A DNA stretch of 64,000 nt, taken from the NCBI GenBank assembly GCA_963804645.1, contig CAWDRG010000004.1, positions 1-64,000 of the forward strand, in the 5' to 3' direction. Position numbers and translations under genes: made by a program. Within the stretch, counting starts at the first letter, position 1. The number at the start of each line of letters is the position of its first letter. Positions 2,723-34,167 of this stretch are shown in pieces. The notes below the pieces were generated by a model, which was not told where the DNA came from, did not search any database, and saw nothing but the letters and a program-made list of their open reading frames with translations. This stretch comes from an uncultured Bacillota bacterium (GTDB lineage: Bacteria > Sysuimicrobiota > Sysuimicrobiia > Sysuimicrobiales > Segetimicrobiaceae).

Positions 2723-3027
2723 GGCTCGCGTGTCCTCGCTTGCGCGGCGGCAGATCGGATCACCGTTCGCGCTGTTGCGACGTTCGCGACGCTGTCGGGC
2801 GATCCTGCCCGAACCGCGCGCCGGTTGATTCGAAGGCGTCCGACTCAGACGTGCCGAACTAGGGGTGAGGATCCGTGGGTTGGGCGGTCACCGTGCTGAT
2901 TTGCATATACTCTGTCCGCCCGATAGGCGCGCCGAACGCCTCTGGGTATGATTCGTGACAATTAGGAGCACCGCAGCGAAAAAGTGTGCCAGTTCGGCAC
3001 AGGAGTGCATTGGGGGGAGACAGAACC

Positions 3028-6062: not shown

Positions 6063-7136
6063 GTGACGGCGGGAGGCAGCGCGGCGGCCGCGGGACGACT
6101 GACACGACCGGGCACTGCCGGCGTGGGTGCGGTGACGTTATGTGCCTGCCTCGCGGCGGGCGCGCTGCTTCTCTGGTGGGCGGCGTTCGGTCCGATCGCG
6201 GCGGCATCCGCTGCGGCGACGGCGGGCACGGGCACGGCTGGCGAGATCCGGGGCACGGTGTTCGTTCGCTCGTTCCCGGCGCATCCGGTGGCGGGCCAGC
6301 GCGTGCGCCTCGAGATCGTCGAGCGCGGATCCACCTCGACGCGGGACACGACGGCCGATCCGCAGGGCCGCTTTACGTTTGCCGGCCTCCCGCTCGGCGG
6401 GCTGCGCGTGTTCCTGGTGCAGGTGGACTATCGCGGAGTGCCCTACACGCGCCGCGTCGAGTTGACGCCGGCGGCGCCCACGAGCGACGTGCCGTTCGCC
6501 GTCTTCGAGTCCACCGAGGACCGGGCGGCGGTGCACGGGACGGTGGCGTTCGGGGTCCTCGAGCCCCTGCAGCGCGGACTGCGCGTCAGCATCATTCAGC
6601 GCCTGGAGAATGACACCGACCGCGCCGTGGTGGTGACCGAGGAGGATCCGCTCGTGTTCCCGCTCCCGGACGTGTCCCCGAGCCCGCGGGGGACCGAGCC
6701 GGTCGAGTTCGTCGGCGGATGGCACGACCCACAGGCGGTGCGCGGCGCGATCACGGATGCGATTCCCGTGCTGCCCGGCGTCATGGAGGTTGCGTACGCG
6801 TTTGGGTTCGAACCGCGCGCCACGTCGGCGACGCTGCGGTGGCGATTTCCGTACGGCGCGACGGACGTGGAGTTGCTCGTGGCCGCGGACCGCGGCATCG
6901 GGGTGTCCGGGAGCGACCTGCACGCCGCCGGCGCGGTGACCGAACGCGGACAGCGCTACGCGCGGTGGTCCGGCGGTCCCGTGAATCCCGGCGCGGCGGT
7001 CTCGGTGCGACTCGACGGGCTGCCGGTGTTCGCGGACCACTGGCCCGAGATCGTCGCGGGCGTGTTTGCGCTTGCCCTCGCGTGCGGCCTGGCGGCGGCG
7101 TTGCGCCGAACGCCCGCGCCGGTGGCCGCACGATGA
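6063..7136 (+). CDS. Membrane-anchored protein with carboxypeptidase-regulatory-like (Ig-like) domain, paralog 1; start uncertain
   Basis: N-terminal hydrophobic signal, VRLEIVERGSTS..TADPQGRFTFAGLP, C-terminal TM; clearly similar to 11565..12542. Confidence 0.7.
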   Translation: MTAGGSAAAAGRLTRPGTAGVGAVTLCACLAAGALLLWWAAFGPIAAASAAATAGTGTAGEIRGTVFVRSFPAHPVAGQRVRLEIVERGSTSTRDTTADPQGRFTFAGLPLGGLRVFLVQVDYRGVPYTRRVELTPAAPTSDVPFAVFESTEDRAAVHGTVAFGVLEPLQRGLRVSIIQRLENDTDRAVVVTEEDPLVFPLPDVSPSPRGTEPVEFVGGWHDPQAVRGAITDAIPVLPGVMEVAYAFGFEPRATSATLRWRFPYGATDVELLVAADRGIGVSGSDLHAAGAVTERGQRYARWSGGPVNPGAAVSVRLDGLPVFADHWPEIVAGVFALALACGLAAALRRTPAPVAAR

Positions 7137-7245
7137 TGCGGGTGCGCGCCGCGATTTGCGAAGGACAACGCGGCACCTTGGAGAAGTGCATATCAGCGGT
7201 CTCGTTGTACGGCACGATGGGCATGTCCGAGTGAGGGAGATGACG

Positions 7246-7770
7246 ATGATGCGAAGTGGATGGGCTTCGATGCGCGGGCGATGGATCGCACTCGTATGTC
7301 TGGGTATCCTGGTGTCGGCGTGGGCGGGACCCGGACACGGCACGCCGGCCTCGCAGACGCGGGCGACCTACGACGCGCTCCCTGTCGAGACGGCGCTCGC
7401 GGCGTCCCCGCAGCCCGGCGCCGCCGTGTACGGGCAGTTCTGCGCGGCCTGTCATCAGGCGGCCGGCCAGGGAATGCCGGGCGCGTTCCCGCCCCTTGCC
7501 AAGGATCCCATCGTCAACGGCGATCCGGACTACGCGGTCCGAGTCGTGCTGTACGGCCTGCAGGGGCGCGTGTCGATCAACGGACAGACGTACAACAGCG
7601 CCATGGCCGGACTCGCCGGTTCGATGACCGACGAGCAGATCAGCCAGGCCCTGACCTACGTCCGCAGCTCGTGGGGCAACAACGCTCCGGCCGTGAGCGC
7701 CGACGCCGTGAAAGCGCAGCGGGCGATCCCGGGCACGCCGCAAGACAACGCGGCCAAGCATCCCAAGTAG
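7246..7770 (+). CDS. Class I monoheme cytochrome c
   Basis: Signal peptide, CAACHQAAGQGMPGAFPPLA, distal Met (SAMAG), LTYVRSSWGN; RBS GAGGGAG. Confidence 0.92.
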   Translation: MMRSGWASMRGRWIALVCLGILVSAWAGPGHGTPASQTRATYDALPVETALAASPQPGAAVYGQFCAACHQAAGQGMPGAFPPLAKDPIVNGDPDYAVRVVLYGLQGRVSINGQTYNSAMAGLAGSMTDEQISQALTYVRSSWGNNAPAVSADAVKAQRAIPGTPQDNAAKHPK

Positions 7771-7860
7771 CGCTGCGGGCGCGCCTCGACGCGGTCGCGT
7801 ACTCCGCGCGCGGCGGACCGCGGAACGGCTCGCGGCTCGCCGCGCCGGGGGAGTCCGTCG

Positions 7861-7889
7861 TTGAAACGCCAATCGGCGTCTGTTATCGT
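7861..7889 (+). promoter_or_regulatory. Sigma70-type promoter of the ccm operon (probably leaderless)
   Basis: TTGAAA-N17-TATCGT with TGn extension, 9 nt before GTG 7899; no Shine-Dalgarno. Confidence 0.55.
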
Positions 7890-7898
7890 TAGTTTGAC

Positions 7899-8588
7899 GT
7901 GATGACACACCGACGTGTCCCCGGATCATCGGACGCCCTGCTCGCGTGGGCGTGCTTCGCCGTGATGCTGCTCGCCCTGTACGGGGCGTTCGTGTACGCG
8001 GCGCGGGAAGCCGTGATGGGGGACATCCAGCGCATCTTCTACGTGCACCTGCCGCTCGCGTGGGTGGGCTTCGTCGCGTTTGGGCACGCGGCGTGGGCGG
8101 GCGTCCAGTATCTTCGCACGGGACGGCGCGAATGGGACATCGCGAGCGCCTCTGCGGCGGAGGTCGGCGTGCTGTTCGCGACGCTCGTGATCATCACCGG
8201 GTCCCTGTGGGCGCGCCCGGTGTGGGGCACCTGGTGGACGTGGGACCCGCAGCTCGTGACGTACCTGATCCTGTGGCTGATCTACGTCGGGTACCTCGTG
8301 CTGCGCGCCGCGGCGGGCGACGACCCGCGGCAGGCCAGGTTCGCGGCGGTGTTCGCGATCGTGGGCTTCGTCGACGTGCCGCTCGTGTGGCTGTCGGCGC
8401 GCTATCTGCGGGCGCTCAGCCCGGTCGTCTTCACGATGCACAGCGTCGGGCTCGCCCCGTCCATGGTGTGGGCGCTGCTGGCCGGGCTGGTCGCGTGGAG
8501 CCTCCTGTACGTGCTGCTCGTGCGCACGAGGATCCGCCTCGGCATCCTCGACGCCCGCGTGCAGGCGCTGACCGATGCGCGCGCCTAG
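7899..8588 (+). CDS. ccmC: Cytochrome c biogenesis heme exporter CcmC
   Basis: RIFYVHLP and WGTWWTWDPQL (WWD domain), multiple TM helices. Confidence 0.9.
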   Translation: MMTHRRVPGSSDALLAWACFAVMLLALYGAFVYAAREAVMGDIQRIFYVHLPLAWVGFVAFGHAAWAGVQYLRTGRREWDIASASAAEVGVLFATLVIITGSLWARPVWGTWWTWDPQLVTYLILWLIYVGYLVLRAAAGDDPRQARFAAVFAIVGFVDVPLVWLSARYLRALSPVVFTMHSVGLAPSMVWALLAGLVAWSLLYVLLVRTRIRLGILDARVQALTDARA

Positions 8589-8591
8589 ACC

Positions 8592-8747
8592 ATGACGTAT
8601 CTCTTCTGGGCGTTTGCGGTGGTGTGGGTCGGGCTCTTCGTCTACCTCTACGGACTCACGCAGCGGAGCCGGCGGCTTGAGCACGAGCTCGACGCCCTGC
8701 GCGAGGAGCCCCGCACGGCCGCGCCCTCCGACGGAGCGCCCCGGTGA
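8592..8747 (+). CDS. ccmD: CcmD family small membrane protein (51 aa, absent from the ORF track)
   Basis: MTYLFWAFAVVWVGLFVYLYGLTQRSRRLEHELDALRE; lies between ccmC and ccmE with GTGA overlap. Confidence 0.8.
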   Translation: MTYLFWAFAVVWVGLFVYLYGLTQRSRRLEHELDALREEPRTAAPSDGAPR

Positions 8748-9205
8748 GCTCCCTGCAGCCGGCCGCGCCCGATCCGCGCCCCCGGACTCTGGGACGGAGC
8801 GCCCGCCGTACGGCGGTGTTTGTGATCGGGACGATCGTGCTCATCCTTTCGCTCGCGTACCTCGTGTACGGGGGCATTCAGCAGGGGGCCACGTACTGGG
8901 TCACCGTCAGCGAGCTCCAGCAGCGGGCGCCCGGGACGCTGCCGGCCCGGGTGCGCCTCGGCGGGACCGTGCAGCCCGGCACGATCCGGTGGGACGCGTC
9001 CCACCGGCATCTCACGTTCATGGTCACCGACGGCCAGCACGCGCTGCCGGTCGCGTACAGCGGGGTGGTTCCGGACATCTTCGCGGAGGGCCGTCAGGTC
9101 GTGGTCGAGGGGACGCGCGACCCCGGCGGCACGTTCCAGGCGACGACGCTGCTGGCGAAATGTCCGACGAAGTACAACGCGGCGGATCCGGCGCCCTCGC
9201 AGTGA
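8744..9205 (+). CDS. ccmE: Heme chaperone CcmE, Cys-type (CPTKY)
   Basis: VRLGGTV, YSGVVPDIFAEG.VVVEG, LLAKCPTKY. Confidence 0.92.
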   Translation: MSSLQPAAPDPRPRTLGRSARRTAVFVIGTIVLILSLAYLVYGGIQQGATYWVTVSELQQRAPGTLPARVRLGGTVQPGTIRWDASHRHLTFMVTDGQHALPVAYSGVVPDIFAEGRQVVVEGTRDPGGTFQATTLLAKCPTKYNAADPAPSQ

Positions 9206-9232
9206 CGCGCCTCCGCCGCCGGCGAGCCGGCT

Positions 9233-11221
9233 GTGGCTGACCTCGGCCGATTCGCGCTGCTCGGCGCGCTCGCCCTCGCCGTCTATGCGCTCGTGTCCGC
9301 GTCGCTCGGCGCGCGGCTGCGGCGCCCGGAATTGGTTCGAAGCGCCGTGCGCGCGCTCGTCGCCGCCGCGGCGCTTGAAGGGCTCGCCGCCCTGCTGCTC
9401 TGGATCGCGCTCGGCACCCGCGACTATCGGTTCGCCTACGTCGTCACCCACGTCAGCAACGCGCAGCCGCTGATCTACGACCTCACGTCGTTCTGGGGCG
9501 GGATGGAAGGATCGCTGCTGCTCTGGGCGCTGCTGCTCTCCGGGTACACGCTGCTCGCGGTGCGCGGCGTCGGCCGGGTCCGTCCGCCGCTCGTGGGCGG
9601 GGTGACCGCGGTGTGCGCCGGCGTCTCGACGTTTTTCCTGTTCATGCTCGCCTTTGTCACGCCCCCGTTCGTGACGGTGCCGTTCCCGCCGGCCGACGGC
9701 AACGGGATGAACCCGCTCCTGCTCAACCCCTGGATGGCGATCCACCCGCCGACCCTCTACCTGGGGTTCGTCGGGCTCACCGTGCCGTTCGCGATCGTGG
9801 CCGCGACCCTCGCCGCGGGCCCGTCGGGGGAGGGGGGCGTGCTGCTCTCGCGCCGGTGGATGCTGTGGGCGTGGTACTGCCTCAGCATGGGGTTGATGTT
9901 CGGGGCGAAGTGGTCGTACGTGGTGCTGGGGTGGGGCGGGTACTGGGCGTGGGACCCGGTCGAGAACGCCGCGCTGATGCCGTGGCTCGTCGCGACGGCG
10001 TTTCTGCACTCGGTGCAGATCCAAGAGCGCCGCGAGATGCTCACGAAATGGAACGTGGTGCTGGTGATCCTGGCGTTCGGGCTGTCCATCTTCGGCACGT
10101 TTCTGACCCGCAGCGGCGTGTTGAGCAGCATCCACTCGTTCACGCAGTCGTCGCTCGGGACGTTCTTTCTCGGGTTTCTCGCGCTCGCGATGCTCGTCGC
10201 GTTCGGCCTCGCGGCGTGGCGGTGGGACGATCTTCGGAGCCGGAATGAGCTGGACGCCGCGGTCTCGCGCGAGAGTGCGTTCCTCCTCAACAACGTGCTG
10301 TTTCTCGCCGTGGCGTTTTCGGTGTTCCTCGGGACCGTGTTTCCCATCGTGTCCGCGGTCCTGACGGGGCGCGCCATCAACGTGGGCCCGCCGTTCTTCG
10401 ATCACATCGTGGTCCCAATCGCGTTCGCGATCCTGCTGCTGATGGGGATCGGCCCGCTGATCGCCTGGCGGCGCGCGTCCCTCGACAGCCTGCGGCGCGA
10501 TTTCATGGCCCCGGGCGCGGCCGGCGTGCTCGTAGGGGTCGGGTTGCTGCTCGCCGGGATGCGCCAGCCGGGCGCCGTCCTCGTGTTTGCGCTGTGCGGA
10601 TTCGTAGCCGCGACCATCGCGCTCGAGTTCGCCCGGGGCGTGCGGGTGCGCCGCGCGCACCGGGATGAGACCGCCGCGCACGCGCTCCTGGGACTGATCG
10701 CCGGCAACCGCCGGCGCTACGGGGGCTACGTGGTACACCTCGGGATCCTGCTGCTGTTCTGCGGCATTACCGGCTCCTCGGTGTTTGCCACGCAGCAGAT
10801 CGTCACCCTCCGCCCGGGGCAGGGGGCCGCGGTCGGGGAGTACCAGGTCCGGTTCGACGGCCTGACGCAGGCCACGCAGGGCGGCGCGCTGTCGATCGGC
10901 GCACAGCTGCGCGTCTTCGAGGGCGCGCGGGACCTGGGGACGTTTGCCGCCCGCCGCAACATGTTTCTCGCCACCCAGGACTCGACCACCGACGTGGTGC
11001 TGCGGAGCACGCCGCGGGACGATCTGTACATCACGCTGATCGGTTGGACCCAAGACGGCCGCGCGACAATCCGCCTGCTCGTTAACCCGCTCGTGTCGTG
11101 GATGTGGGCCGGCGGCCTCGTGCTGACGCTCGGGGCGGTGCTCGCGATGATTCCCGAGCGGCGTGTGGCACCGGACGACCTCCCCGTGCCCGCAGGGGCG
11201 CTGAGCCCGGGCCGCCCGTGA
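9233..11221 (+). CDS. ccmF: Cytochrome c heme lyase CcmF
   Basis: WGGMEGSLLLW, IHPPTLYLG, LGWGGYWAWDPVENA, RSGVLSSIHSF, NPLVSWMW. Confidence 0.96.
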   Translation: MADLGRFALLGALALAVYALVSASLGARLRRPELVRSAVRALVAAAALEGLAALLLWIALGTRDYRFAYVVTHVSNAQPLIYDLTSFWGGMEGSLLLWALLLSGYTLLAVRGVGRVRPPLVGGVTAVCAGVSTFFLFMLAFVTPPFVTVPFPPADGNGMNPLLLNPWMAIHPPTLYLGFVGLTVPFAIVAATLAAGPSGEGGVLLSRRWMLWAWYCLSMGLMFGAKWSYVVLGWGGYWAWDPVENAALMPWLVATAFLHSVQIQERREMLTKWNVVLVILAFGLSIFGTFLTRSGVLSSIHSFTQSSLGTFFLGFLALAMLVAFGLAAWRWDDLRSRNELDAAVSRESAFLLNNVLFLAVAFSVFLGTVFPIVSAVLTGRAINVGPPFFDHIVVPIAFAILLLMGIGPLIAWRRASLDSLRRDFMAPGAAGVLVGVGLLLAGMRQPGAVLVFALCGFVAATIALEFARGVRVRRAHRDETAAHALLGLIAGNRRRYGGYVVHLGILLLFCGITGSSVFATQQIVTLRPGQGAAVGEYQVRFDGLTQATQGGALSIGAQLRVFEGARDLGTFAARRNMFLATQDSTTDVVLRSTPRDDLYITLIGWTQDGRATIRLLVNPLVSWMWAGGLVLTLGAVLAMIPERRVAPDDLPVPAGALSPGRP

Positions 11222-11538
11222 TCCCCGCGGTCCTGGTCGCGCTCGCGCTCGCGACGGCCGCGTTCGTGCTCGCGCCGCTGATGCGGCCCGAGCCTGCGTC
11301 GGCGCCGGAGACGGACGCCGATCGGCTGGTGCGCTCGCGTGAGGCGGCGTACCGCGCGCTGCGCGAACTCGAGATGGACCGGGAAGCGGGCAAGATCGGC
11401 GAGTCGGACTACGCGGTGCTCCGCGGCCGCGTCGAGGCCGAGGCCGTCGCGGTGCTGCACCGCCTCGACGCCCTCGCCGCGGGGACCGGGGCGAGGGCGG
11501 AGCCCCGGACTGAAACGAATCGGGACGGACCGTCCTGA
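11218..11538 (+). CDS. CcmI N-terminal-like small membrane protein
   Basis: N-terminal TM then LRELEMDREAGKIGESDY..LR helix typical of CcmI/CycH N-domains; GTGA overlap with ccmF. Confidence 0.65.
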   Translation: MIPAVLVALALATAAFVLAPLMRPEPASAPETDADRLVRSREAAYRALRELEMDREAGKIGESDYAVLRGRVEAEAVAVLHRLDALAAGTGARAEPRTETNRDGPS

Positions 11539-11564
11539 GGCGGCGGCGTTCGGCGGGAAGCGAT

Positions 11565-12542
11565 GTGCGTCCTTCGTGGAGGGGGGCCCGTTGGGCCCTC
11601 CTCCTCTGTCTGGTCGTGTGCGCGGCGCTGGGATCGGTGCCCGTGTCGTCCGCCGACGGGCCGGGCGGGCTGATTCGCGGGCACGTGCTCGATCGGACCT
11701 CGGCCGTCCGCGCCGTCGCCAGGCAGCCGGTGCGTCTCGAGATCGTCGAGCGCGGCTCGACCTCGGAGCGCCTCACGGTCACGGACGCGCGCGGGGCGTT
11801 CGCGTTCCCCGGCCTGCCGGTGGGCGGCGGCGTGCCGCGCGTGTTCCTCGTCCGGACTGAGTATCAGGGCGTGCCGTACGGCACGCGGGTGGAGTTGGCC
11901 GCCGAGACACCGACGCAGACGGCCGACCTCGACGTGTATCAAGCGACGCGCGACCACGCGGCCGTGCACGGCACGATCGCGTTCGCCGTGGTGGAGACAA
12001 GCCAGGGCGCGGTGCGGATCAGCGTCATCCAGCGTTTGGAAAACACGACCCGCCGCGCGGTCGTGGGGAGCGATGCCGACCCCCTCGTCTTCCCGCTGCC
12101 CCTCGGCGCGCAGGCGGTCGAACTGATCGGAGGGTGGCAGCACCCGCAGGTCGCGCACGGGGCGATCACCGACGCGATCGCCGTCCCGCCCGGGGTGCTC
12201 CAGGTCGGCTACGCGTACGACCTCGCGCCCCGCGCCAGCCGGTTCACCGTCGACTGGGCCCTACCGTACGGGGCCGCCGACGTCGAGATGTTGGTCAACG
12301 ATCCCGCGCTCATCCTCTCGGGCGCCGGGGTGCGGCGCGCGGGCGTGGTCGCGGACTCCGGCCGGCATTTCACGCGGTGGTCCGCCGGAGCGGTGCCGCG
12401 CGGCGGGGAGATCGCGTGGACATTCGACGGGCTCGCCGGACGGGACGACCGCTGGCCGGCAAGTGCGGCGATCGTGCTGTGCGTGCTGCTCGGGGGCGGG
12501 CTCACCGCGGCGCTGCGGCACCGCCCGGCGGCGGCGTCCTAG
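11565..12542 (+). CDS. Membrane-anchored carboxypeptidase-regulatory-like domain protein, paralog 2
   Basis: Signal peptide, PVRLEIVERGSTSERLTVTDARGAFAFPGLP, C-terminal TM; paralog of 6063..7136. Confidence 0.75.
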   Translation: MRPSWRGARWALLLCLVVCAALGSVPVSSADGPGGLIRGHVLDRTSAVRAVARQPVRLEIVERGSTSERLTVTDARGAFAFPGLPVGGGVPRVFLVRTEYQGVPYGTRVELAAETPTQTADLDVYQATRDHAAVHGTIAFAVVETSQGAVRISVIQRLENTTRRAVVGSDADPLVFPLPLGAQAVELIGGWQHPQVAHGAITDAIAVPPGVLQVGYAYDLAPRASRFTVDWALPYGAADVEMLVNDPALILSGAGVRRAGVVADSGRHFTRWSAGAVPRGGEIAWTFDGLAGRDDRWPASAAIVLCVLLGGGLTAALRHRPAAAS

Positions 12543-12724
12543 GGCGGGCGCCGGGGGAGTCGCTTTCGGCCGGCCCGGAAGGAGTGGGTCGCGGCGCCGT
12601 GGAACCACAAACTCCCGCGAGCGTTTTTTCGCCTGGAGCCGCGCCGGCCGGTAGCATCCGAACGGCGTCATCCCGCGTCGTGGACACCGGCCCGGTACCC
12701 GTGGGCATGGAAGAGAGGAGCGGC

Positions 12725-13594
12725 ATGCTGAGAGGGTTATGGGTGCGTCCTCGAGCAACCCTGCTGGTGCTCGCGGCGGCCGTCGCGGCCGCCGGATGCC
12801 AACCGCAGGTCAGCGTCGAGCGGACGCGGACATCCGTCGCGCTGCCGCCGACGCAGGAGGTCGAGATCGCGCTCGTGGCCGATGAACAGGGGCACCCGAT
12901 CACGCCCGACGCGGTGCACGGGAAGCAGGTCTTCGATGCCAACTGCGCCGTGTGCCACGGGATGTCGGGGAAAGGGAACGGCCCCATGGCGCCGACGCTC
13001 GTCGAACCCCAGCATGACGTGCTGGCCGCGCTCGTGGGCCTGTTTGGGATCACGGTGCACCGCCCGAATTTGCCGAGCAGCCCGGCGGACTTCACCAACC
13101 GGGATCTTGAGAGCGTGATCACCCCGGCGATCATGTACCAGACGGTGACCCAGGGACGCGCGTACACGGCGATGCCGGCGTTCGGGCCGCAGGCGTCGTT
13201 CGGGGCGAACCAGGCGCAGCAGTTGACCAACGCGCAGCGGTGGGACGCGAACGTGTACGAGATGATGTTCCGGACCTCGCCGGAGGCGCTCAGCGCGGCG
13301 AAGCAGGTGTACGACGCGCAGTGCGCGCAGTGCCACGGGATGAACGGCGACGGCAAGGGGCCCCGGGGCGCCGAGATGGGCGCGCAGGTCTGGACGTGGG
13401 CGCACGGCACGGGACCGGGCATCTTCACCGACATCAACTACATGGTGCAGCGGAACGGCGCGGATCTGGCGAACGAGATCGCAGACGGCAATGGGATCAT
13501 GCCGAGCTACCGCGGCAAGCTGACCCCGGCGCAGGTGAACGGGCTCGTGGACTACGTCTACACGTTCTTTTACAAACACCCAGCGATCCAGTAG
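12725..13594 (+). CDS. Diheme cytochrome c lipoprotein
   Basis: Lipobox AAAGC; CAVCH and CAQCH, each followed by a MPAF/MPSY Met ligand motif; RBS GAGGAG. Confidence 0.9.
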   Translation: MLRGLWVRPRATLLVLAAAVAAAGCQPQVSVERTRTSVALPPTQEVEIALVADEQGHPITPDAVHGKQVFDANCAVCHGMSGKGNGPMAPTLVEPQHDVLAALVGLFGITVHRPNLPSSPADFTNRDLESVITPAIMYQTVTQGRAYTAMPAFGPQASFGANQAQQLTNAQRWDANVYEMMFRTSPEALSAAKQVYDAQCAQCHGMNGDGKGPRGAEMGAQVWTWAHGTGPGIFTDINYMVQRNGADLANEIADGNGIMPSYRGKLTPAQVNGLVDYVYTFFYKHPAIQ

Positions 13595-13635
13595 CGAATG
13601 CGGACGGGCGGCGACCGCGCGGGAGGGGCGATTCG

Positions 13636-14313
13636 ATGAAGCTCGAGAGGCGGGGGCTGATCAAGACGCTGGTGGCGATCCCGGTGATCGGGACGATCAT
13701 TGCGTTACTGTCCCCGCTGTTCCGGTTTCTGAAGCCGAACGACGGCGCGTGGAACATCTTCACGATCAAGCCGGACCTGCCCGCGGGCGGCGCCCAGGTC
13801 GTGGGGCGGGTGTCGCAGCTGGCGAAGCCGTGGGACTCGTTCTACTTCACCTACGTCCAGAAGTTCGTGCAGTACGATCCCGAGGGCGAAGAGGCGAGCA
13901 ACGTCCCAGGGGTCGCGATCCGGCTGCCGCAGAAGGTGAATTTCACCAACGCCGAGGGGTTTGTAGGGTTTCAGGGGGAGACCGACATCGTGTTGTTCTC
14001 GCGAATCTGCCCGCACCTCGGCTGCATCTTCAACTATGTCAGCGACTACCACGAGGTCACGGCGGGGTACGGGGGGATGGAACCACCGGCCTCCGAGCAC
14101 CACGCGCTGATGGCGTGCCCGTGTCACTTCAGCATCTACGATCCGACGTATCCCGGCGACCCCGGCAACGTGATCTCGGGGCCGGCTCCTCGGGGCGCGC
14201 GGTACTTCCAGTTCGAGATCCAGGGTGACAACATCGTCGTCACCGGCGCCGAAGTCGGCGCGATCGCGAAGGCACGGCCGAGCCGCGCGCAGGCGCCGCG
14301 CGGCGACGCCTGA
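13636..14313 (+). CDS. Rieske [2Fe-2S] subunit of a cytochrome bc-type complex
   Basis: Tat-like ERRGLIK plus TM; CPHLGC and CPCHFS boxes; GPAPR. Confidence 0.95.
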   Translation: MKLERRGLIKTLVAIPVIGTIIALLSPLFRFLKPNDGAWNIFTIKPDLPAGGAQVVGRVSQLAKPWDSFYFTYVQKFVQYDPEGEEASNVPGVAIRLPQKVNFTNAEGFVGFQGETDIVLFSRICPHLGCIFNYVSDYHEVTAGYGGMEPPASEHHALMACPCHFSIYDPTYPGDPGNVISGPAPRGARYFQFEIQGDNIVVTGAEVGAIAKARPSRAQAPRGDA

Positions 14314-14337
14314 GCCGCAGCAACCACGGACGGGAGG

Positions 14338-15495
14338 GTGGCGGTGGAGGCGGTCCTCGCAAATCTCAAGGAGTGGTTCCAGGACCGAAAGCAGCACCTG
14401 GACCTCTTCGACGAGACGAAAACCGGGAAACAGGACAACCCGCTGTACATCCTCGGGAACCTGGTCTGGCTGTCGTGGATGGCTGTGATCGTCTCCGGGA
14501 TCGTGCTGATGCTCTGGTACATCCCGACAACGACCGGCGCGTACCGCTCGATCCAGCACATCACCCTCGACCTTCCGTTCGGCTGGCTCGTGCGCGGCGT
14601 GCACAAATACGGCGGCGACATGCTGATCACGGTGATCACGCTGCGGATCTACCGGATGTACTTCGCGGGCGAGTATAAGAAGCCGGGCGAGCTGTCGTGG
14701 ATGATCCTGTTCCTCTCCCTCGTGCTGGCGATGGTCTCGGGGGTCACCGGGTACACGCTCGAGTGGAACCAGCGCGCGTTCTGGGCGGCGAAGGTCATCC
14801 TGACCGTCCCGACCTACTACGACCAGATCCCGCTCGTGGGGAACCTCGGGCTCGGGCACGCGATCGCGTACATCTTCCTCGGCGGTCCGGCGCTCGGCCA
14901 GGGGACGCTCACCCGGTTCTACGCGATCCACTTCGGCATCTCGATCATCGCCGTGATCATCATTGAGATGTTCGTCTACCGGACGCGGCGCCGGCACCTC
15001 AACCTGTCGGCGTTCGCGATCGTCCTCGTCCTCGTGTTTCTCGCGTTCGTGAGCTTCATGAACCTGGCGGACGTCGGCGACTGGGCGAACAACAACCGCA
15101 CGCCGCTGCCGGTCCTGTCCGACTGGTACTTCCTGGCGCTGTACCAGGTCGTGAAATACATGCCGCCGCTGTGGGCGGGGGTGGCGCCGGCGCTGCTGAT
15201 CGGCTACGGCATGCTGGTGCCGTTCCTCGACCGGACGAAGGAGACGCGGGCGACGGAGCGGCCGTTCTTCTTCGTGATCGGGCTGCTCGCGCTCGCCTAC
15301 TGGATCGGATTCAGCGCGCTCATCCTGCTGAACATCGCGGTCATCTCGCGGGATCCGCCGATCATCTGGGGGATCACCGTCGTGGTCTGCCTGCTCGCGT
15401 TCGTCTGGGAGATGGGGTACCGGCGGCGCAAGGCGCAGCGTGCCGCGGCGCAGGCCGCGGCCCGCGCCGCGGCACGGCCCGCCGGGGCGGCGTAG
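14338..15495 (+). CDS. Cytochrome b subunit 1 (b6 plus subunit IV type fusion) retaining only two of the four heme His ligands
   Basis: WLVRGVHKYGGD, TGYTLEWNQRAFWA, TRFYAIHF, SDWYF (PEWY equivalent); the +14 positions are Arg and Phe instead of His. Confidence 0.9.
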   Translation: MAVEAVLANLKEWFQDRKQHLDLFDETKTGKQDNPLYILGNLVWLSWMAVIVSGIVLMLWYIPTTTGAYRSIQHITLDLPFGWLVRGVHKYGGDMLITVITLRIYRMYFAGEYKKPGELSWMILFLSLVLAMVSGVTGYTLEWNQRAFWAAKVILTVPTYYDQIPLVGNLGLGHAIAYIFLGGPALGQGTLTRFYAIHFGISIIAVIIIEMFVYRTRRRHLNLSAFAIVLVLVFLAFVSFMNLADVGDWANNNRTPLPVLSDWYFLALYQVVKYMPPLWAGVAPALLIGYGMLVPFLDRTKETRATERPFFFVIGLLALAYWIGFSALILLNIAVISRDPPIIWGITVVVCLLAFVWEMGYRRRKAQRAAAQAAARAAARPAGAA

Positions 15496-15496
15496 C

Positions 15497-15814
15497 ATGC
15501 GGCGGAAGCACTTGTTCTACGTCCTACTCGCCGCGGCCACGTTCGGGCTGAGCGAATTCTTGGCCGCCTGGCGCGCGTGGCGGGCGGCCCCGACGCTCGA
15601 TGCCGCCGCGGCCGTGGTGGCGCTCGCGGTGGGCCTCGTCGCCGTGATGCTGTGGCTCGGGTTCCTGCTGTACGAGGTGGACCGCGCGGCGGGGCGGATT
15701 CGCCGCCCGGTGGGCCTCTACGAGTGGGTGCTGGCGCGGCGCGCGCCCGACCGGCCGGCGGGATGGACCGGCGGCGGCGCCGCCGGACACGGCGGGGGGA
15801 GGGGAACGGCGTGA
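15497..15814 (+). CDS. Small membrane protein (2 TM)
   Basis: Two hydrophobic segments; starts 1 nt after the cyt b stop. Confidence 0.6.
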   Translation: MRRKHLFYVLLAAATFGLSEFLAAWRAWRAAPTLDAAAAVVALAVGLVAVMLWLGFLLYEVDRAAGRIRRPVGLYEWVLARRAPDRPAGWTGGGAAGHGGGRGTA

Positions 15815-16005
15815 GTGACCGCGCGTCCGCGTACACGATGTGGATCGTGCTCTTGTCGGCGCTGAGCTTCGTGTGCGTGCTCGGGATGGTGTGGGGCGAA
15901 CTGATGAACCATCATCACGTGACCGCGGCGCTGATCGGCGTGGTCCTGCTGGCGTACTCGTTCATCCTGCTGCTGCTGCGCAAGGGGGGATTCACGGGTG
16001 TATAA
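15811..16005 (+). CDS. Small membrane protein (2 TM, HHH in loop)
   Basis: GGAGG RBS, GTGA overlap; WIVLLSALSFVCVLGMVW..NHHH..ALIGVVLLAYSFILLLL. Confidence 0.65.
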   Translation: MSDRASAYTMWIVLLSALSFVCVLGMVWGELMNHHHVTAALIGVVLLAYSFILLLLRKGGFTGV

Positions 16006-17155
16006 GCGGGCGCTCGGCCGGCTGCTCGACGCGACGCTGCGGCTGGACACCGTCGTCGGGCGGGTCTACCCGGACGATTTCAACCCGCTGTACTACACGG
16101 GCGGTCTCGCGAACCTGTTCCTGACCATCCTCGTCCTGTCCGGGATCTTTCTGTTCTTCTATTACGTGCCGTCGTTCAACGACGCGTACGCGTCGGTCCA
16201 GTTCCTGACCGTGAACGTGCCGTACGGCCAGATCATCCGCGGGATTCACCGCTACGCGGCGGACGGCTTCATCATCGTCATTTTGCTGCACTTCTTCCGC
16301 AACTGGTTCACCGAAAGGTTCCGGTTCTCGCGGGACGAGCCGTGGATCAGCGGGATGATGCTGCTGGCCTTCGCCGGCTTTATCGGCGTGACCGGCTACA
16401 TTCTCGTCTGGGACCAGCGCAGCGAGGCGCTGGTCGCGATGACCGGCAACGCGGCCTCCCACGTGCCGCTGGTCGGCGGGTGGCTGCGGGACGCGCTGTT
16501 CGGGGGCGCGGGGCTGACGGACCTCCTCCTGCCGCGCATCCTGTTCCTCCACGTCGGCCCGGCGGTCGCGCTGTACGTGTTCCTCTGGTGGCACTACACC
16601 CGCATCCGGGCGCCGAAGGTGTGGCCGCCCGCGGTGTGGACCCTGTTTGCGCTCGGGTTCATCCTGCTGCTGACCGGGCTCTTGCCGGTGACCAGCCAGC
16701 CGGCGGCCTCGGCCCTGCAGCCGCCCACGGGCTTCGCCGTGGACTGGCTGTTCCTGTCGCCCTACTGGGCGCTCCGCGTGCTGCCGCCGCTGGTGCTGGT
16801 GGCGCTCGGGGTCGTGCTGGTCGCGTACGGGCTGTACATCCCGTACCAGCTGCCGGAGACCCGCGCGGAACTCGGGATCAAGGACTCGGGAGTCGCGCAG
16901 GTGCTCGACGCGAACTGCACCGGCTGCGAGCTGTGCTACTACGACTGCCCGTACAACGCGATCGTGATGGTGCCCTCGCCGAACCCCGGGGTGACCAAGG
17001 CGGCGCAGGCCCGGAAGCTGCGCGCCGTCGTGCTGGAGTCCCGCTGCGTCGAATGCGGGATCTGCGTCGGGGCCTGCCCGTTTGAGGCGCTCGAACTTCC
17101 GGGGTATCTCCAAGTGGACATCCAGAAGAAGGTGTTGAGCGCATGCCAGAGCTAA
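15998..17155 (+). CDS. Cytochrome b subunit 2 fused to a C-terminal 2x[4Fe-4S] ferredoxin domain
   Basis: H-x13-H pairs HRYAADGFIIVILLH and HVGPAVALYVFLWWH; CTGCELCYYDCP and CVECGICVGACP. Confidence 0.9.
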   Translation: MYKRALGRLLDATLRLDTVVGRVYPDDFNPLYYTGGLANLFLTILVLSGIFLFFYYVPSFNDAYASVQFLTVNVPYGQIIRGIHRYAADGFIIVILLHFFRNWFTERFRFSRDEPWISGMMLLAFAGFIGVTGYILVWDQRSEALVAMTGNAASHVPLVGGWLRDALFGGAGLTDLLLPRILFLHVGPAVALYVFLWWHYTRIRAPKVWPPAVWTLFALGFILLLTGLLPVTSQPAASALQPPTGFAVDWLFLSPYWALRVLPPLVLVALGVVLVAYGLYIPYQLPETRAELGIKDSGVAQVLDANCTGCELCYYDCPYNAIVMVPSPNPGVTKAAQARKLRAVVLESRCVECGICVGACPFEALELPGYLQVDIQKKVLSACQS

Positions 17156-17679
17156 CGGGAACGGGCACCCCCCAGACGCCGCAGAGCGCGCCCGCGGCGC
17201 GCGGCGCCCGCATCGTCGGATTCTTGTGCGACTGGGCGGTTGCGTCCGACGGCCTCGTGCGCGACGACGGCACGATGCGGGATCTGCCCGGCGTCACGCT
17301 GATCAAGATCCCGTGCTCGGGGTTTACGCGGCCCGCGTGGCTGGAGTTTGCGCTCCGCAACGGCGCCGAGGGGGTCTTCGTCTGCGGCTGTCCGCTCGGC
17401 GACTGCTTCAACCGCTACGGCAACAACCTCATCGGCGACCGCGTCGAGCAGCTGCGTCGGCGTCTCGAGCGTCAGCGCATCAATCCTGAGCGCATCGGGG
17501 CGATCTTCTACCGGCGCGACGCGCAGGCGGAGTTCGTGAGCGCGGTCCGTGCGTTCGCGGAGAAGGTGGCCGGGCTGCCGGGCCCGGTGCTGCCCCCGGC
17601 GAGACCGCCGGCCGCCCCGCGCGGGGCCGCGCCCGCCAAGCCCGCGGAGGCCCCGGCCCCCGAACAGGAGGGAACATAA
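17143..17679 (+). CDS. MvhD/FlpD-like [2Fe-2S] protein (hydrogenase iron-sulfur subunit family)
   Basis: IVGFLCDW, IKIPCSG, GAEGVFVCGCPLGDCFNRYGN, INPERI. Confidence 0.85.
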   Translation: MPELTGTGTPQTPQSAPAARGARIVGFLCDWAVASDGLVRDDGTMRDLPGVTLIKIPCSGFTRPAWLEFALRNGAEGVFVCGCPLGDCFNRYGNNLIGDRVEQLRRRLERQRINPERIGAIFYRRDAQAEFVSAVRAFAEKVAGLPGPVLPPARPPAAPRGAAPAKPAEAPAPEQEGT

Positions 17680-17816
17680 TGGCGGAACGCGCGCCGGCCG
17701 CGAAGCCCGAAGCGCCCAGCGCGAGCGTGGTGTACTGGCGCTACCTCGTGTTCTGGGTGCTGTTGTTCGCGTTTCTGTTCTTCGTGTCGCTGTACGGCAT
17801 CGTCGCGGACGTCTAG
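17679..17816 (+). CDS. Single-TM small protein (45 aa, absent from the ORF track)
   Basis: AGGAGG RBS, TAATG overlap; MAERAPAAKPEAPSASVVYWRYLVFWVLLFAFLFFVSLYGIVADV. Confidence 0.65.
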   Translation: MAERAPAAKPEAPSASVVYWRYLVFWVLLFAFLFFVSLYGIVADV

Positions 17817-17864
17817 CGCGGACCCGGACCGCCCGCCGCGCCCCCCGGTCCAGGAGAACACGCC

Positions 17865-18881
17865 TTGCGGCGAGAACTGACCACCCCCATGGAACTCGGC
17901 CAGATCTACGCGCCCGTGCAGGAGGACCTTCTCGCGCTGGACGCGCTGCTGCGCGCGGAGCTCGTCAGCGACGATCCGTTCATCGGGGAGCTGGTCGCGC
18001 ACGTCCTCAGCACGCACGGCAAGATGATTCGTCCGGCCCTCGTGTGCCTGAGCGCCCTCGCCGGCGCGGCGGAGCCGGCCGACCGCCCCCCCGCGCGCCT
18101 CGAGATCTCGGGGGCCGTCGAGCTGATCCACGTCGCCTCGCTCGTGCACGACGACGTCATCGACGTCGCGGATCTGCGCCGCGGGCAGGCGACCGTCAAC
18201 TCGCTGTGGGGGAACCAGGTGGCGGTGCTGCTGGGCGACTATCTGTTCAGCAAGGCGTTTCATCTGCTCGCCCGCCTGCGCGCCGCGGAGCTCGCCGCGG
18301 CGATGGCGTGGGCGACGGTGCGGATGAGTCAGGCCGAAATCAAGCAGATCAAATACGGAAACACGGCGCATACCGACGAGGCGATCTACTTCGACATCAT
18401 CGAGGGGAAGACCGCGCAGCTGATGAGCGCCGCGTGCCGCTGCGGAGCGATGACGGCCGGGGCCGACGCCCGCGCGGTCGAGGCCCTTGCCGCGTTCGGC
18501 TTGGAGTGGGGCATGGCGTTCCAGATCACCGACGACGCGCTCGACGTCACGTCGAGCACCTCCTCGCTCGGCAAGCCGATCGGCAGCGACATTCAAACGG
18601 GCAAGGTGACGCTGCCCGTCATCCACGCGCTGCGGCGCGCGCCCGAGGCCGACCGCCGCCGCCTCGAGACGATGCTGGCGGCGGCGAACGGGGACGCCCG
18701 GGACGGGGATCCCGGAGAGATCCGGGAGATCCTCTCGCGCAGCGGCGCCGTGGAGTACGCGCTCGGGGTCGCCCGCACACGGGCGGCCCGCGCGGCCGCG
18801 GCCCTCGAGCCGCTGCGCGACTCGCCGGCCCGGCGCAGTCTCGGCGCCCTCGTCGAGTTCGTGACCGCGCGCACGAGCTAG
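17865..18881 (+). CDS. Polyprenyl diphosphate synthase (quinone side chain; HepT/IspB-like)
   Basis: GKMIRP, HDDVID..RRG (FARM), GKTA, FQITDDALD (SARM). Confidence 0.93.
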   Translation: MRRELTTPMELGQIYAPVQEDLLALDALLRAELVSDDPFIGELVAHVLSTHGKMIRPALVCLSALAGAAEPADRPPARLEISGAVELIHVASLVHDDVIDVADLRRGQATVNSLWGNQVAVLLGDYLFSKAFHLLARLRAAELAAAMAWATVRMSQAEIKQIKYGNTAHTDEAIYFDIIEGKTAQLMSAACRCGAMTAGADARAVEALAAFGLEWGMAFQITDDALDVTSSTSSLGKPIGSDIQTGKVTLPVIHALRRAPEADRRRLETMLAAANGDARDGDPGEIREILSRSGAVEYALGVARTRAARAAAALEPLRDSPARRSLGALVEFVTARTS

Positions 18882-18890: not shown

Positions 18891-20069
18891 ATGCGCACTC
18901 CGGCGGTGGTGGACGGGCAACGGGGCCCCCGGCCGGCGGAGGCCCCGGGACCGTGGCGGCGCCTTCGGGACGGCCTGTTTCGTCTGGCGGTGCACACGAC
19001 GAGCGCCCATCTCGCGCGGCACGCGGGCGCGATCGTGGCGCGCTGGCACGCGTCGCTGCGGGACGCGGTGCCCCGCTACCGCGACGCCGCCGAGACCTCC
19101 GCGTGGGGCGTCGAGGAGCTGCGGGTGCTGCTGGCGGTGGCCCGCGCGTGGACCGCCGAGGAGCAGGCCGAGGCGCGCGAGGCGGTGTTTCGCACCGCGC
19201 GCGCGGTCGCGGGCGAGCAGCTCCGGGGCGAGTTTTCGCTCGGCGAGATCCAGCAGGCGCTGGCCCTCTTCCGGCTGGCCGTCCTGGGAGAGATCCAGCG
19301 CATGCTCCGCCGGCGCCTCTGGCTCGCGTTCCCGTGGGACGTGATGCGCGTCGCCGACCGCTTGAACGAAGCGATCGACCTGGAGCTGCTGGCGATCGGG
19401 CAGGCGTACCTCGACGAGCGCGCGGAGGTCATCCGGGAGCGGGAGCAGGAACTCGTCGCGGGAAACGAGCAGCTCCGGACCCTGCTTCAGGAGATGCACC
19501 ACCGCATCAAGAACAATCTGCAGACCCTCGCCGACCTGCTCTATCTGGAAGGGCATGACGCCGGCTCGGCCGAGGTCCGCGATCACCTGCGCGACAGCCT
19601 GGCGCGCGTCAAGAGCATCGCCACCGTGCACCGGTTGCTGTCGCTGGATCACATTGGAGAAGCCGACGCGCGGCGCCTCGCCGAGGCGATCGCGGCCACC
19701 GTCTGCGGGGACCTCGGGACGCCTCGGACCCAGGTCGAGGTCCGGGTGGATGGGGCGCCGGTCCTGCTGCCGAGCAAACAGGCCACATCGCTCGCGCTGG
19801 TGCTCGGGGAGCTGATCACGAACGCCATGGAGCATGCGTTCGCCGGGCGCCCCCGGGGTGCGATCGTCGTGACCCTCGACGAGCACGACGGAGAGGTCGG
19901 GCTCGTCGTGCGGGACGACGGGGTGGGGCTCCCGGACGGGCTCGATCCCCAGCGGGTCGACAGTCTCGGGCTGTCGATCGTGCGCACGCTCGTGTCGCGG
20001 GATCTTGGCGGCCGCCTGCGCATGTGGGTCGACGGCGGCACGGTCGCGGAGGTGACGTTTCGCCGATGA
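18891..20069 (+). CDS. Cytoplasmic sensor histidine kinase, HisKA_2 (PdtaS/EutW-like)
   Basis: EMHHRIKNNLQ H-box, ELITNAMEHAF, DDGVGLP, SLGLSIV. Confidence 0.9.
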   Translation: MRTPAVVDGQRGPRPAEAPGPWRRLRDGLFRLAVHTTSAHLARHAGAIVARWHASLRDAVPRYRDAAETSAWGVEELRVLLAVARAWTAEEQAEAREAVFRTARAVAGEQLRGEFSLGEIQQALALFRLAVLGEIQRMLRRRLWLAFPWDVMRVADRLNEAIDLELLAIGQAYLDERAEVIREREQELVAGNEQLRTLLQEMHHRIKNNLQTLADLLYLEGHDAGSAEVRDHLRDSLARVKSIATVHRLLSLDHIGEADARRLAEAIAATVCGDLGTPRTQVEVRVDGAPVLLPSKQATSLALVLGELITNAMEHAFAGRPRGAIVVTLDEHDGEVGLVVRDDGVGLPDGLDPQRVDSLGLSIVRTLVSRDLGGRLRMWVDGGTVAEVTFRR

Positions 20070-20647
20070 CGGATCCGGCGCGCATCCTGATCGCCGATGA
20101 CGAGGCGATCCGCCTGATGACGCTCAAGCGGCAGCTCGCCGCGTTGGGGATGGACGTTGTGGCCGAGGCGACCACGGGGCGCGAGGCCGTGGCGCTCGCG
20201 CGCGACACCGCGCCGGATCTCGCGATCCTCGATATCAAGATGGCGGAGCTGGACGGCATCGAGGCGGCGCGGGCGATCACGCGCGAGCGGCCGATCCCGA
20301 TCATCCTGCTGACGGCGTATTCCGATCAGGGCCTGATCGAGCGGGCCGCGGCCGCCGGCGTGTTCGCCTATCTCGTGAAGCCGGTCGGCGAGGAGGATCT
20401 TCTGCCCGCGATCTTGACCGCCCGGACGCGGTTCCGGGAGTTCCACGCGCTGCGCGGCGAGGTGGCGTCGCTCGGCGACGCCCTCGAGGCGCGCAAGGTG
20501 ATCGAGCGCGCGAAGGGGATGTTGATGGATCGGTTTCGCCTGAGCGAAGCCGAGGCGTTTCGCCGCATGCAGATCCAGAGCCAGCGTGAGAACAAGCGCC
20601 TCGTCGAGATCGCCCGGGCGCTGCTCGCGGCGCCTCCGACGCCCTGA
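20066..20647 (+). CDS. ANTAR-domain response regulator (PdtaR/EutV-like)
   Basis: REC domain (ADDE, LDIKM, YLVKP) plus RKVIERAKGMLM..SEAEAFRRMQ. Confidence 0.93.
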   Translation: MTDPARILIADDEAIRLMTLKRQLAALGMDVVAEATTGREAVALARDTAPDLAILDIKMAELDGIEAARAITRERPIPIILLTAYSDQGLIERAAAAGVFAYLVKPVGEEDLLPAILTARTRFREFHALRGEVASLGDALEARKVIERAKGMLMDRFRLSEAEAFRRMQIQSQRENKRLVEIARALLAAPPTP

Positions 20648-32138: not shown

Positions 32139-32476
32139 TGGAGGCCCGGCGCAAGGCGCTCCTCGCGGCCGAGGCCGCGGAAGCGAAGCTGGCGGACCGC
32201 GTCGTGGTGCTGGATCTGCAGGAGCACAGTCCCGTGACCGACTTCTTCGTGATCGCGACCGGCAGCAACCGGATTCAGATCAAGGCGATCACCGAGGCGG
32301 TCGAGGACGCGCTCGGAGAGGCGGGGGAGCAGTCGGGACGGGCGGAGGGCCGTCGCGGCGGCCAGTGGGTGCTGCTCGATTTTGGGGACGTCGTCGTGCA
32401 CGTCTTCGATCCGCGCGAGCGCGAGTTCTACAACCTCGAATGGCTGTGGGGAGATGCCCCGATCGTCGAGCGGTGA
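32138..32476 (+). CDS. rsfS: Ribosome silencing factor
   Basis: DFFVIATG, WVLLDFGDVVVHVF..REFYNLE.LW. Confidence 0.95.
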   Translation: MEARRKALLAAEAAEAKLADRVVVLDLQEHSPVTDFFVIATGSNRIQIKAITEAVEDALGEAGEQSGRAEGRRGGQWVLLDFGDVVVHVFDPREREFYNLEWLWGDAPIVER

Positions 32477-32512
32477 GGCGCCGGGCGATCGAGCCCGCGC
32501 GGAGCGCGCGGC

Positions 32513-32541
32513 TGGACCTCGGCGCCGCTGTCCGATATAAT
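32513..32541 (+). promoter_or_regulatory. Promoter of tRNA-Ala
   Basis: TGGACC-N17-TATAAT. Confidence 0.6.
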
Positions 32542-32578
32542 GCAGGGGTCCCGCGGGTGCCCGTCCGCGGATCGGCGT

Positions 32579-34145: not shown

Positions 34146-34167
34146 ACACAGCGCTGGACTGCAGTAT

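Follow-up and report, generated by a model that had tools for sequence, protein, structure and literature searches.

Where does the second electron of quinol oxidation go in a Rieske/cytochrome b operon that encodes two unlike cytochromes b, one with a single haem site and the other fused to a ferredoxin domain and followed by an MvhD-like gene? The operon lies at about 12707-17679 in a stretch of 64,000 nucleotides (contig CAWDRG010000004.1, positions 1 to 64,000; hereafter the window) with a GC content of about 0.70. It belongs to the 5.3 Mb, 22-contig genome of an uncultured bacterium (assembly GCA_963804645.1), whose closest relatives are metagenome-assembled genomes (MAGs) labelled CSP1-3, Candidatus Sysuimicrobiota or "ANGP1". 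A preliminary description of the window had singled out the gene pair at 15998-17679, cytochrome b no. 2 with its ferredoxin domain (here called cytbFer) and the MvhD-like gene, as a possible exit or entry for electrons on the cytoplasmic side. The chances are put at about even (roughly 0.5) that the operon as a whole encodes an asymmetric Rieske/cytochrome b complex and that this pair makes up the half of it that faces the cytoplasm. Quinol would be oxidised at the quinol oxidation (Qo) site of cytochrome b no. 1, and the first electron would pass through the Rieske cluster and a dihaem cytochrome c to a terminal oxidase. As cytochrome b no. 1 holds haem bL only, the second electron would cross the dimer interface to haem bL of cytbFer, and from there pass haem bH, a pair of [4Fe-4S] clusters and finally the [2Fe-2S] cluster in the MvhD-like protein on its way to an acceptor in the cytoplasm. 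Electrons could also flow along this wire in the opposite direction. The seven genes, densely packed on the + strand, are as follows.

12707..13594, + strand: dihaem c-type cytochrome (two Cytochrome_CBB3/Cytochrom_C domains)
13636..14313, + strand: Rieske [2Fe-2S] protein with one N-terminal membrane helix (NCBIfam Rieske-type and weak Pfam Rieske matches)
14338..15495, + strand: cytochrome b no. 1, b6 fused to subunit IV, 385 residues (PF00033, PF00032)
15497..15814, + strand: tmA, small membrane protein of 105 residues with two hydrophobic helices (third-position GC 0.92, tblastn, hydropathy)
15838..16005, + strand: tmB, small membrane protein of 55 residues with two hydrophobic stretches around an NHHH turn (third-position GC 0.88)
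15998..17155, + strand: cytbFer, cytochrome b no. 2 fused to a 2x[4Fe-4S] ferredoxin domain, 385 residues (PF00033, Fer4)
17143..17679, + strand: MvhD/FlpD-like protein of 178 residues with a presumed [2Fe-2S] cluster (PF02662)

The frames of cytbFer and of the MvhD-like gene are supported as coding by their third-position GC (0.95 and 0.89, respectively). The start of the dihaem cytochrome c is uncertain (ATG at 12707 or 12725, the open reading frame itself beginning earlier); the gene is kept 5' of the Rieske gene in 42 loci, and its product is probably the acceptor of the Rieske protein. The small membrane protein tmA, for which the Pfam scan gave no family, has tblastn matches at 48 loci and is a probable accessory subunit. 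For tmB there are such matches at 44 loci, and its stop overlaps the start of cytbFer.

Cofactor sites of the two cytochromes b

In a residue-by-residue alignment to the solved chains 1vf5_A and 1q90_B, cytochrome b no. 1 keeps the haem bL ligands (H89, H198), has R103 at the position of b6 His100 in helix B, and has no His at that of b6 His202 in helix D. Among 50 aligned rows from loci found through cytbFer, the helix-B bH column is R in 45, K in 2 and a gap in 3. In rows from loci found through cytochrome b no. 1 itself, the column is R or K and the helix-D bH ligand is missing in 80/80, with a His one column away from the helix-D position in two. Two His pairs (bL plus bH), as is the rule for Rieske/cytochrome b complexes, are thus found in cytbFer and not in the Qo-bearing cytochrome b no. 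1. With both bH ligands lost, the low-potential electron of cytochrome b no. 1 would have no quinone reduction (Qi) site of its own. In this protein the Qo motif, SDWYFL, is invariant, and the same region of cytbFer is not. An exhaustive search of 1.84 billion proteins was carried out, and 137 representatives of at least 200 residues were compared; R or K stands at the helix-B bH column in 24 of them, all within the top 30 matches, and the other 113 have His (112) or a gap (one). The one-haem cytochrome b is therefore a discrete clade. R103 and a Glu that is invariant in the 80 rows (E210, twelve residues past H198) occupy the would-be haem bH site, and from the alignment these two may pair to fill the empty haem pocket.

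The second cytochrome b had been described as carrying four His, a degenerate PEWY region (VDWL) and two C-terminal CxxCxxCxxxCP motifs, and all three readings were borne out. PF00033 (Cytochrome_B) matches cytbFer over residues 22-204 with an expectation value (E) of 8e-30, and several Fer4 families match over 296-367, with Fer4, Fer4_7 and Fer4_9 exceeding the Pfam cut-offs. The fold is of the b6 type, with 1q90_B and 1vf5_A as best solved relatives. H84, H98, H185 and H199 align with b6 His86, His100, His187 and His202 and are invariant in 72/72 relatives; a further His, H155, lies in a loop. The Qo region reads V248-D-W-L251, of which the Asp alone is near-invariant, and the haem-ci motif CxGG reads YTGG. 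The two iron-sulphur (Fe-S) motifs are C307/310/313/317-P318 and C350/353/356/360-P361, and each of the eight Cys is retained in 70-71 of the 72 rows, among which one is truncated. The linker between helices D and E, the region where canonical cytochromes b build the Qi site, is shortened to about 10 residues in cytbFer, versus about 40 in the genome's two canonical paralogues.

Members of the cytochrome b family have their N-terminus on the negative side (n-side) of the membrane. Hydropathy of cytbFer finds helices A, C, D, E and F, and an AlphaFold2 model built from a 46-row alignment has six helices (30-55, 77-104, 110-137, 177-201, 212-228 and 264-283), which correspond to A-D of b6 plus E-F of subunit IV; ten-residue blocks wholly inside these helices mostly have a predicted local distance difference test score (pLDDT) of 83-93. 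As six helices follow an n-side N-terminus, the ferredoxin domain is placed in the cytoplasm. This is the placement that the preliminary description needed, a periplasmic one was not seen, and the way Arg and Lys are spread over the loops, as read from the sequence, also fits it.

The Rieske protein of the operon has CPHLGC as box I and CPCHFSIY as box II, with an S-Y signature. The cluster boxes CxH...CxCH are kept in 45/45 relatives and the signature is S-Y in 44 and S-F in one of these, and the NCBIfam Rieske-type matches fall below the curated cut-offs. Two canonical Rieske/cytochrome b operons are present in the same genome, on other contigs (C22:42553-45482 and C11:53734-58132). Their cytochromes b have four His and a PDWY motif and end in a c-type cytochrome domain, their Rieske proteins carry G-F and G-Y signatures, and each operon adjoins a haem-copper oxidase gene. 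Since these two coexist with it, the 12707-17679 operon is an extra, specialised one. By the S-Y rule, as excerpted from PMC4122944, the S-Y signature goes with a Rieske potential above 260 mV, versus about 150-200 mV for G-F and G-Y; the Rieske protein of this operon would then be of high potential, and the canonical two of low or middle potential. For Kuenenia it has been argued, in a portion of PMC12954380, that high Rieske potentials imply a very low bL potential.

The MvhD-like protein and the distribution of the module

The MvhD-family gene overlaps that of cytbFer by 13 nucleotides, in agreement with the preliminary description, and matches PF02662 with E 3.4e-23 (82.4 bits versus a cut-off of 22.3). 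It is the sole FlpD match in the whole genome. Its best solved relative is the MvhD chain 5odc_D (E 4.6e-16), with the Cys of which C29, C58, C83 and C88 align; these are kept in 64, 63, 63 and 62, respectively, of 64 rows, counts that include the MvhD domains of fused relatives. The ligand conservation on which the idea of an Fe-S relay depended is thus found, and C81 is variable. The protein has an alanine- and proline-rich C-terminal tail and no signal peptide apparent by eye.

As had been noted, hydrogenase and HdrA families are absent from the window, none being found among the 49 open reading frames scanned. In the whole genome the HdrA2 model has four matches: the window MvhD, the cytbFer tail, another ferredoxin-like stretch and a dinucleotide-binding stretch of 42 residues. 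The order Fer4 then MvhD matches HdrA2 model positions 568-643 and 648-770. [NiFe] hydrogenase genes are present away from the operon, on contigs C22 and C8. A Pfam scan found no domain that binds flavin or nicotinamide adenine dinucleotide (phosphate) (NAD(P)) in the operon genes or their neighbours.

Two independently seeded sets of loci were used to follow the genes through other genomes. In the set seeded with cytbFer (71 loci, 54 of split type, that is with MvhD as a separate gene), MvhD is directly downstream in 54/54 split loci, and cytochrome b no. 1 is upstream in all 49 that have sufficient contig. In the set seeded with cytochrome b no. 1 (79 loci), cytbFer follows in 60 of the 62 loci with at least 2300 nucleotides downstream, MvhD is downstream in 56/58, and a Rieske gene is upstream in 73/74. 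The exceptions, L159 and L166, are from Vampirovibrionales; in these the operon stops after the small membrane proteins, and cytbFer (E 5e-124 and 6e-122) and MvhD are adjacent to each other on a different contig of each genome. The split module is seen in CSP1-3, in Melainabacteria/Vampirovibrionales/Caenarcaniphilales, and in a Fimbriimonadaceae, an Anaerolineae and a gammaproteobacterial MAG. It is nearly universal in CSP1-3 (Sysuimicrobiota), being found, in single copy, in 81/94 genomes (79/92 without the unpublished genomes G017 and G025, both positive), 47/54 high-quality genomes and 29/31 genera. One CSP1-3 genus is without it in 8/8 genomes, and no haem-copper oxidase was found in the four genomes of this genus that were tested.

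The survey of cytochrome b-Fer4-MvhD architectures proposed in the preliminary description also yields fused forms, in several phyla. Fused cytochrome b-Fer4-FlpD proteins of 514-664 residues occur in Pseudomonadales, Chitinophagaceae and Bdellovibrionales MAGs, the FlpD match of the Bdellovibrionales form being weak (E 0.0076, 16.7 bits, below the 22.3-bit cut-off). Among 39 longer homologues of 677-784 residues (Verrucomicrobia, Calditrichaeota, Chloroflexi), 27 carry PF02662. Identity between cytbFer and the fused relatives is 26-35%, and the order of domains is the same. No domain that would name a partner is seen in them: the longer homologues have no Pfam domains besides cytochrome b, Fer4 and FlpD, and the extra 170-300 or so residues of the Chitinophagaceae and Bdellovibrionales forms match no family even at E up to 1. 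Four of the long fused forms (P0122, P0123, P0128, P0158) have, by eye, an extra hydrophobic helix past MvhD and then a conserved C-terminal domain of about 140 residues. This domain, to which no Pfam family among the precomputed domains corresponds, should by topology face the periplasm. In a Pseudomonadales MAG a second, very divergent COX1-like gene (L056:9940-11364, PF00115 E 1.4e-10) and COX15/CtaA lie downstream of the fused cytochrome b.

Oxidase genes also border the split module in some relatives. Those for cbb3-type CcoN and CcoO are upstream of it in L051, L052 and L159 and downstream in L021, L024 and L050, and a cupredoxin gene is downstream in L016 and L035. These downstream inserts, a cbb3-type oxidase or a cupredoxin, were all that a search of the operon surroundings for a partner found, with no cytoplasmic enzymes among them. 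In the present genome no oxidase stands beside the module, and four haem-copper oxidases are encoded elsewhere, two of them beside the canonical operons. For the relatives' CcoN and cupredoxin, tblastn against this genome gave no counterpart up to an E of 1e-5, and for CcoO it gave one weak match, on contig C22 (27% identity, E 5e-6).

Weighing the proposed circuit

The cofactor ligands, topology, complementary losses, co-occurrence and fusions given above are read from sequence. From these it is inferred that the two cytochromes b form one heterodimer with bL-to-bL transfer and a single chain of three Fe-S clusters, which would be the simplest circuit for their complementary defects (Qo and bL only in one, bL and bH with a degenerate Qo region in the other). 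Excerpts of PMC4330944 and PMC4152375 describe bL-to-bL transfer in bc1 that is catalytically competent, as well as bc1 dimers that sustain growth although cross-inactivated. A complex prediction for the two cytochromes b scored 0.51, the best of three controls scoring 0.23. The mark used for such predictions is reached by 116/157 solved complexes and 2/215 mismatched pairs, with merely 18 of the 157 solved complexes, and both of the passing mismatches, lying above the mark at scores up to 0.60. Contacts agree between the runs to 80% or more, and the pLDDT of the partner is 75 or higher. This gives weak support to a pairing of the two proteins.

A number of points weigh against this circuit. 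The prediction is a weak pass that is blind to the difference between heterodimer and homodimer, and it may be driven by likeness to solved cytochrome b dimers. The ferredoxin domain is poorly modelled (pLDDT 33-50) and no inter-cofactor distances can be derived from it. The conserved Qo-like Asp of cytbFer may mean that this protein has a quinone site of its own. Inward transfer onto the Fe-S clusters would work against the membrane potential and would probably be uphill in redox potential. No conserved cytoplasmic enzyme is found in the operon, and the HdrA partner that the preliminary description looked for in the genome did not appear, the HdrA2 model finding no flavoprotein core. The two halves are on separate contigs in the two Vampirovibrionales genomes. 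The fused forms adjoin COX2-like, COX1-like and SCO1 genes, with no Rieske gene or one-haem cytochrome b, so that the cytochrome b-FeS-MvhD unit can act outside a Rieske complex.

These last two observations also favour a rival reading, in which cytbFer and MvhD form a quinone-reactive module in the membrane that is independent of the Rieske complex. Resembling NarI, HdrE or QmoC-type cytochromes b with their Fe-S partners, it would function as a monomer or homodimer, pass electrons between the quinone pool and a redox partner in the cytoplasm, and simply be co-expressed with a Rieske complex or a terminal oxidase. The text excerpted from PMC4122944 likewise has no Rieske protein in the clusters of fused forms, and the Qo-like Asp is kept even in these, as FDWY. 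However, split forms do not conserve the remainder of the cytbFer Qo motif, a separate module would turn haem bL of cytochrome b no. 1 into a dead end in 80/80 relatives, and the constant co-occurrence of the one-haem form with the cytbFer-MvhD pair would go unexplained. A separate module is thus considered unlikely.

Equally doubtful is a wire that serves as an entry, with a donor (reduced ferredoxin, a dehydrogenase or a hydrogenase) docking on MvhD and electrons moving outward through the Fe-S clusters, bH and bL to reach Qo, the Rieske/cytochrome c chain or an oxidase. The outcome would be a donor:quinone or donor:cytochrome c activity, or confurcation. Outward electron movement is aided by the membrane potential, which would favour such a direction. 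The Fer4-then-MvhD order copies the C-terminus of HdrA2, and MvhD/VhuD carries electrons from hydrogenase or formate dehydrogenase to the [4Fe-4S] clusters of HdrA (PMC6019823, in part), which makes the entry a rival to be taken seriously. Oxidase genes beside the module in several lineages, and the [NiFe] hydrogenase genes of this genome, would also suit an entry. However, the hydrogenase genes sit on other contigs, and a donor enzyme is not conserved beside the module in any lineage examined. Such an entry would moreover be wasteful of low-potential reductant compared with entry through the quinone pool, and the invariant Qo motif together with the S-Y Rieske signature suggests quinol oxidation as the core reaction. 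That the pair has no catalytic role in respiratory electron transfer, and is for instance a sensor of redox state, a factor for assembly or a duplicate in decay, is highly improbable: a histidine kinase/ANTAR pair follows closely downstream, with synteny in some members of the phylum, but across phyla the pair retains all four ligands of its haems, all eight Cys of its [4Fe-4S] motifs and the four Cys of MvhD, and the tightly overlapping genes are single-copy in the CSP1-3 genomes that have them, none of which would be kept in a decaying duplicate.

The preliminary description had the low-potential branch leave or enter by way of bH, Fe-S clusters and MvhD, in quinone-based bifurcation or confurcation. 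Its structural half is borne out by the topology, the conserved Cys and the partner without bH, the last of which strengthens it beyond what that description had to go on, and its functional half, bifurcation or confurcation, goes beyond what the sequence supports. A natural, obligate heterodimer that performs open-ended quinone-based bifurcation, with a high-potential (S-Y) Rieske protein drawing one electron of a low-potential quinol toward oxygen and the other being driven over the dimer interface and through the membrane onto the Fe-S clusters, is no better than a tentative proposal, and on balance an improbable one. If true, it would supply a (micro)aerobic cell with reductant at the level of ferredoxin or NAD(P)H and spare it reversed electron transport by complex I or Rnf; one use might be CO2 fixation, the CSP1-3 phylum being rich in chemoautotrophs. 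Textbook Rieske/cytochrome b complexes are symmetric dimers that return the low-potential electron to the quinone pool. The present complex, if so built, would be a natural counterpart of the engineered cross-inactivated bc1 dimers and would mean that inter-monomer transfer can be obligatory. It would also be a simple system in which to test quinol bifurcation that feeds the cytoplasm, as proposed so far for anammox bacteria and eNOR operons.

Surroundings of the operon and comparison with known systems

Cytochrome c maturation genes (CcmC-like, CcmE, CcmF) adjoin the operon upstream, and its downstream neighbour in most loci of the phylum is the following gene, for which membership in the complex is not implied.

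17865..18881, + strand: polyprenyl diphosphate synthase (PF00348, E 4e-69)

On its 3' side are a HisKA_2 histidine kinase and an ANTAR response regulator (18891-20647, + strand), a position kept in many relatives (L003, L004, L006, L021, L024 and others); this pair might regulate the cluster. Promoter and terminator scans of 6500-18200 gave three promoter-like and nine terminator-like sites, mostly intragenic, from which the limits of the operon cannot be defined. Near the cytochrome c maturation genes, an open reading frame at 2986-4494 (+ strand, 502 residues) has an N-terminal hydrophobic stretch, one CxxCH (CSACH) and the C-terminal end ...YTWFSF, and matches no Pfam family at E up to 1e-5. 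As this end recalls outer-membrane beta-barrel proteins, the product may, from its sequence, be a haem-carrying barrel. Elsewhere in the window, GC content drops to 0.61-0.64 at 32000-36400, a stretch flanked by tRNA genes at 32579-32650 and 36236-36300. No open reading frame with high third-position GC is found at 33100-36436, and short ones precede it at 32080-32268 and 32851-33099. This stretch may be an inserted element.

Among known systems, the operon resembles the canonical bc1, b6f and Firmicute-type bc complexes in the Rieske CxH...CxCH boxes, the c-type cytochrome, the b6 fold and the PDWY-like Qo motif of cytochrome b no. 1. It differs in having two unlike cytochromes b in place of a homodimer, the first of them without bH ligands. 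The second, cytbFer, is without helix G and CxGG, has a cytoplasmic 2x[4Fe-4S] domain and a short D-E linker, and comes with an added MvhD subunit. A dihaem cytochrome b in the membrane joined to cytoplasmic [4Fe-4S] clusters is also known from QmoABC and HdrDE, QmoB carrying an MvhD-like domain, and there too the quinone pool is tied to a reaction in the cytoplasm; those systems have NarI/HdrE-type cytochromes b and HdrA-like flavoproteins, whereas cytbFer is of the bc/b6 type and has a Rieske partner. With MvhAGD-HdrABC and HdrA2 the likeness lies in the FlpD fold (by sequence), the four aligned Cys and a neighbouring 2x[4Fe-4S] domain in the HdrA2 order. Here, however, no HdrA core was found in the genome and no hydrogenase is adjacent, and two of the N-terminal Cys in the CCNWC stretch of 5odc_D are replaced.

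The Rieske/cytochrome b complexes of Kuenenia stuttgartiensis, with NAD(P) oxidoreductase subunits, were the subject of a proposal by Kartal et al. (as given in part of PMC12954380). Shared with these would be a redox module on the cytoplasmic side that stands in for an evident Qi function, a high-potential Rieske protein and a low-potential electron for cytoplasmic reduction. The Kuenenia module is of the flavin/NAD(P) kind with multihaem c and HAO-like subunits, whereas the present operon has a ferredoxin domain plus MvhD, lacks a flavin domain and divides the work between two cytochromes b. The engineered cross-inactivated bc1 dimers, as far as the excerpted accounts go, are alike in that one monomer provides Qo, the other the path to the n-side, and a bL-to-bL link joins them; those are laboratory constructs that end in Qi, and this would be a natural version that ends in Fe-S clusters.

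Closest are proteins already in print. The preliminary description treated the fusion as unknown, but a cytochrome b with 4Fe-4S and MvhD domains in one protein, the 'PDWF-FeS' clade, was described in 2014 by Kao and Hunte, in excerpts of whose paper (PMC4122944) it has no Rieske partner and a fused relative with flavin adenine dinucleotide (FAD) and NADH domains is reported from Alicycliphilus. Excerpts of a preprint on the Ferrigenium straubiae eNOR operon (bioRxiv 10.64898/2026.01.22.701106) describe cytochrome b-[Fe-S] and cytochrome b-[Fe-S]-FAD-NADH proteins and propose through them a link from quinol to NAD+. By analogy, such FAD/NADH-bearing relatives hint that for some members the couple on the cytoplasmic side may be NAD(P)(H). 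The joining of cytochrome b to 4Fe-4S and MvhD domains, and the proposed path from quinol to cytoplasm, are common to these proteins and the present pair. However, those are single polypeptides in oxidase or nitric oxide reductase operons without a Rieske gene; by sequence comparison rather than by a tree, the window protein has MvhD as a separate gene, VDWL in place of PDWF, a Rieske gene in its operon and a one-haem partner.

Other mentions are more distant. Large cytochrome b proteins of unassigned function are mentioned in the portion of Dibrova et al. (2017) consulted, and in a 2018 preprint (10.1101/328856) on relatives of Cyanobacteria the Melainabacteria genes appear as ordinary petB/petC within a complex III/IV cluster. 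The CSP1-3 papers PMC11604079 and PMC11962464 make no mention of a Rieske protein, complex III, bc1 or MvhD, the latter saying "cytochrome b" once, for a bd oxidase. No description of the split, Rieske-linked form with a one-haem partner was found in the literature searched, the supplements of Kao and Hunte and of Dibrova et al. lying outside it. Thus, the fused cytochrome b-4Fe-4S-MvhD protein is known, and what appears to be new here is its split, Rieske-linked form with a one-haem partner cytochrome b.

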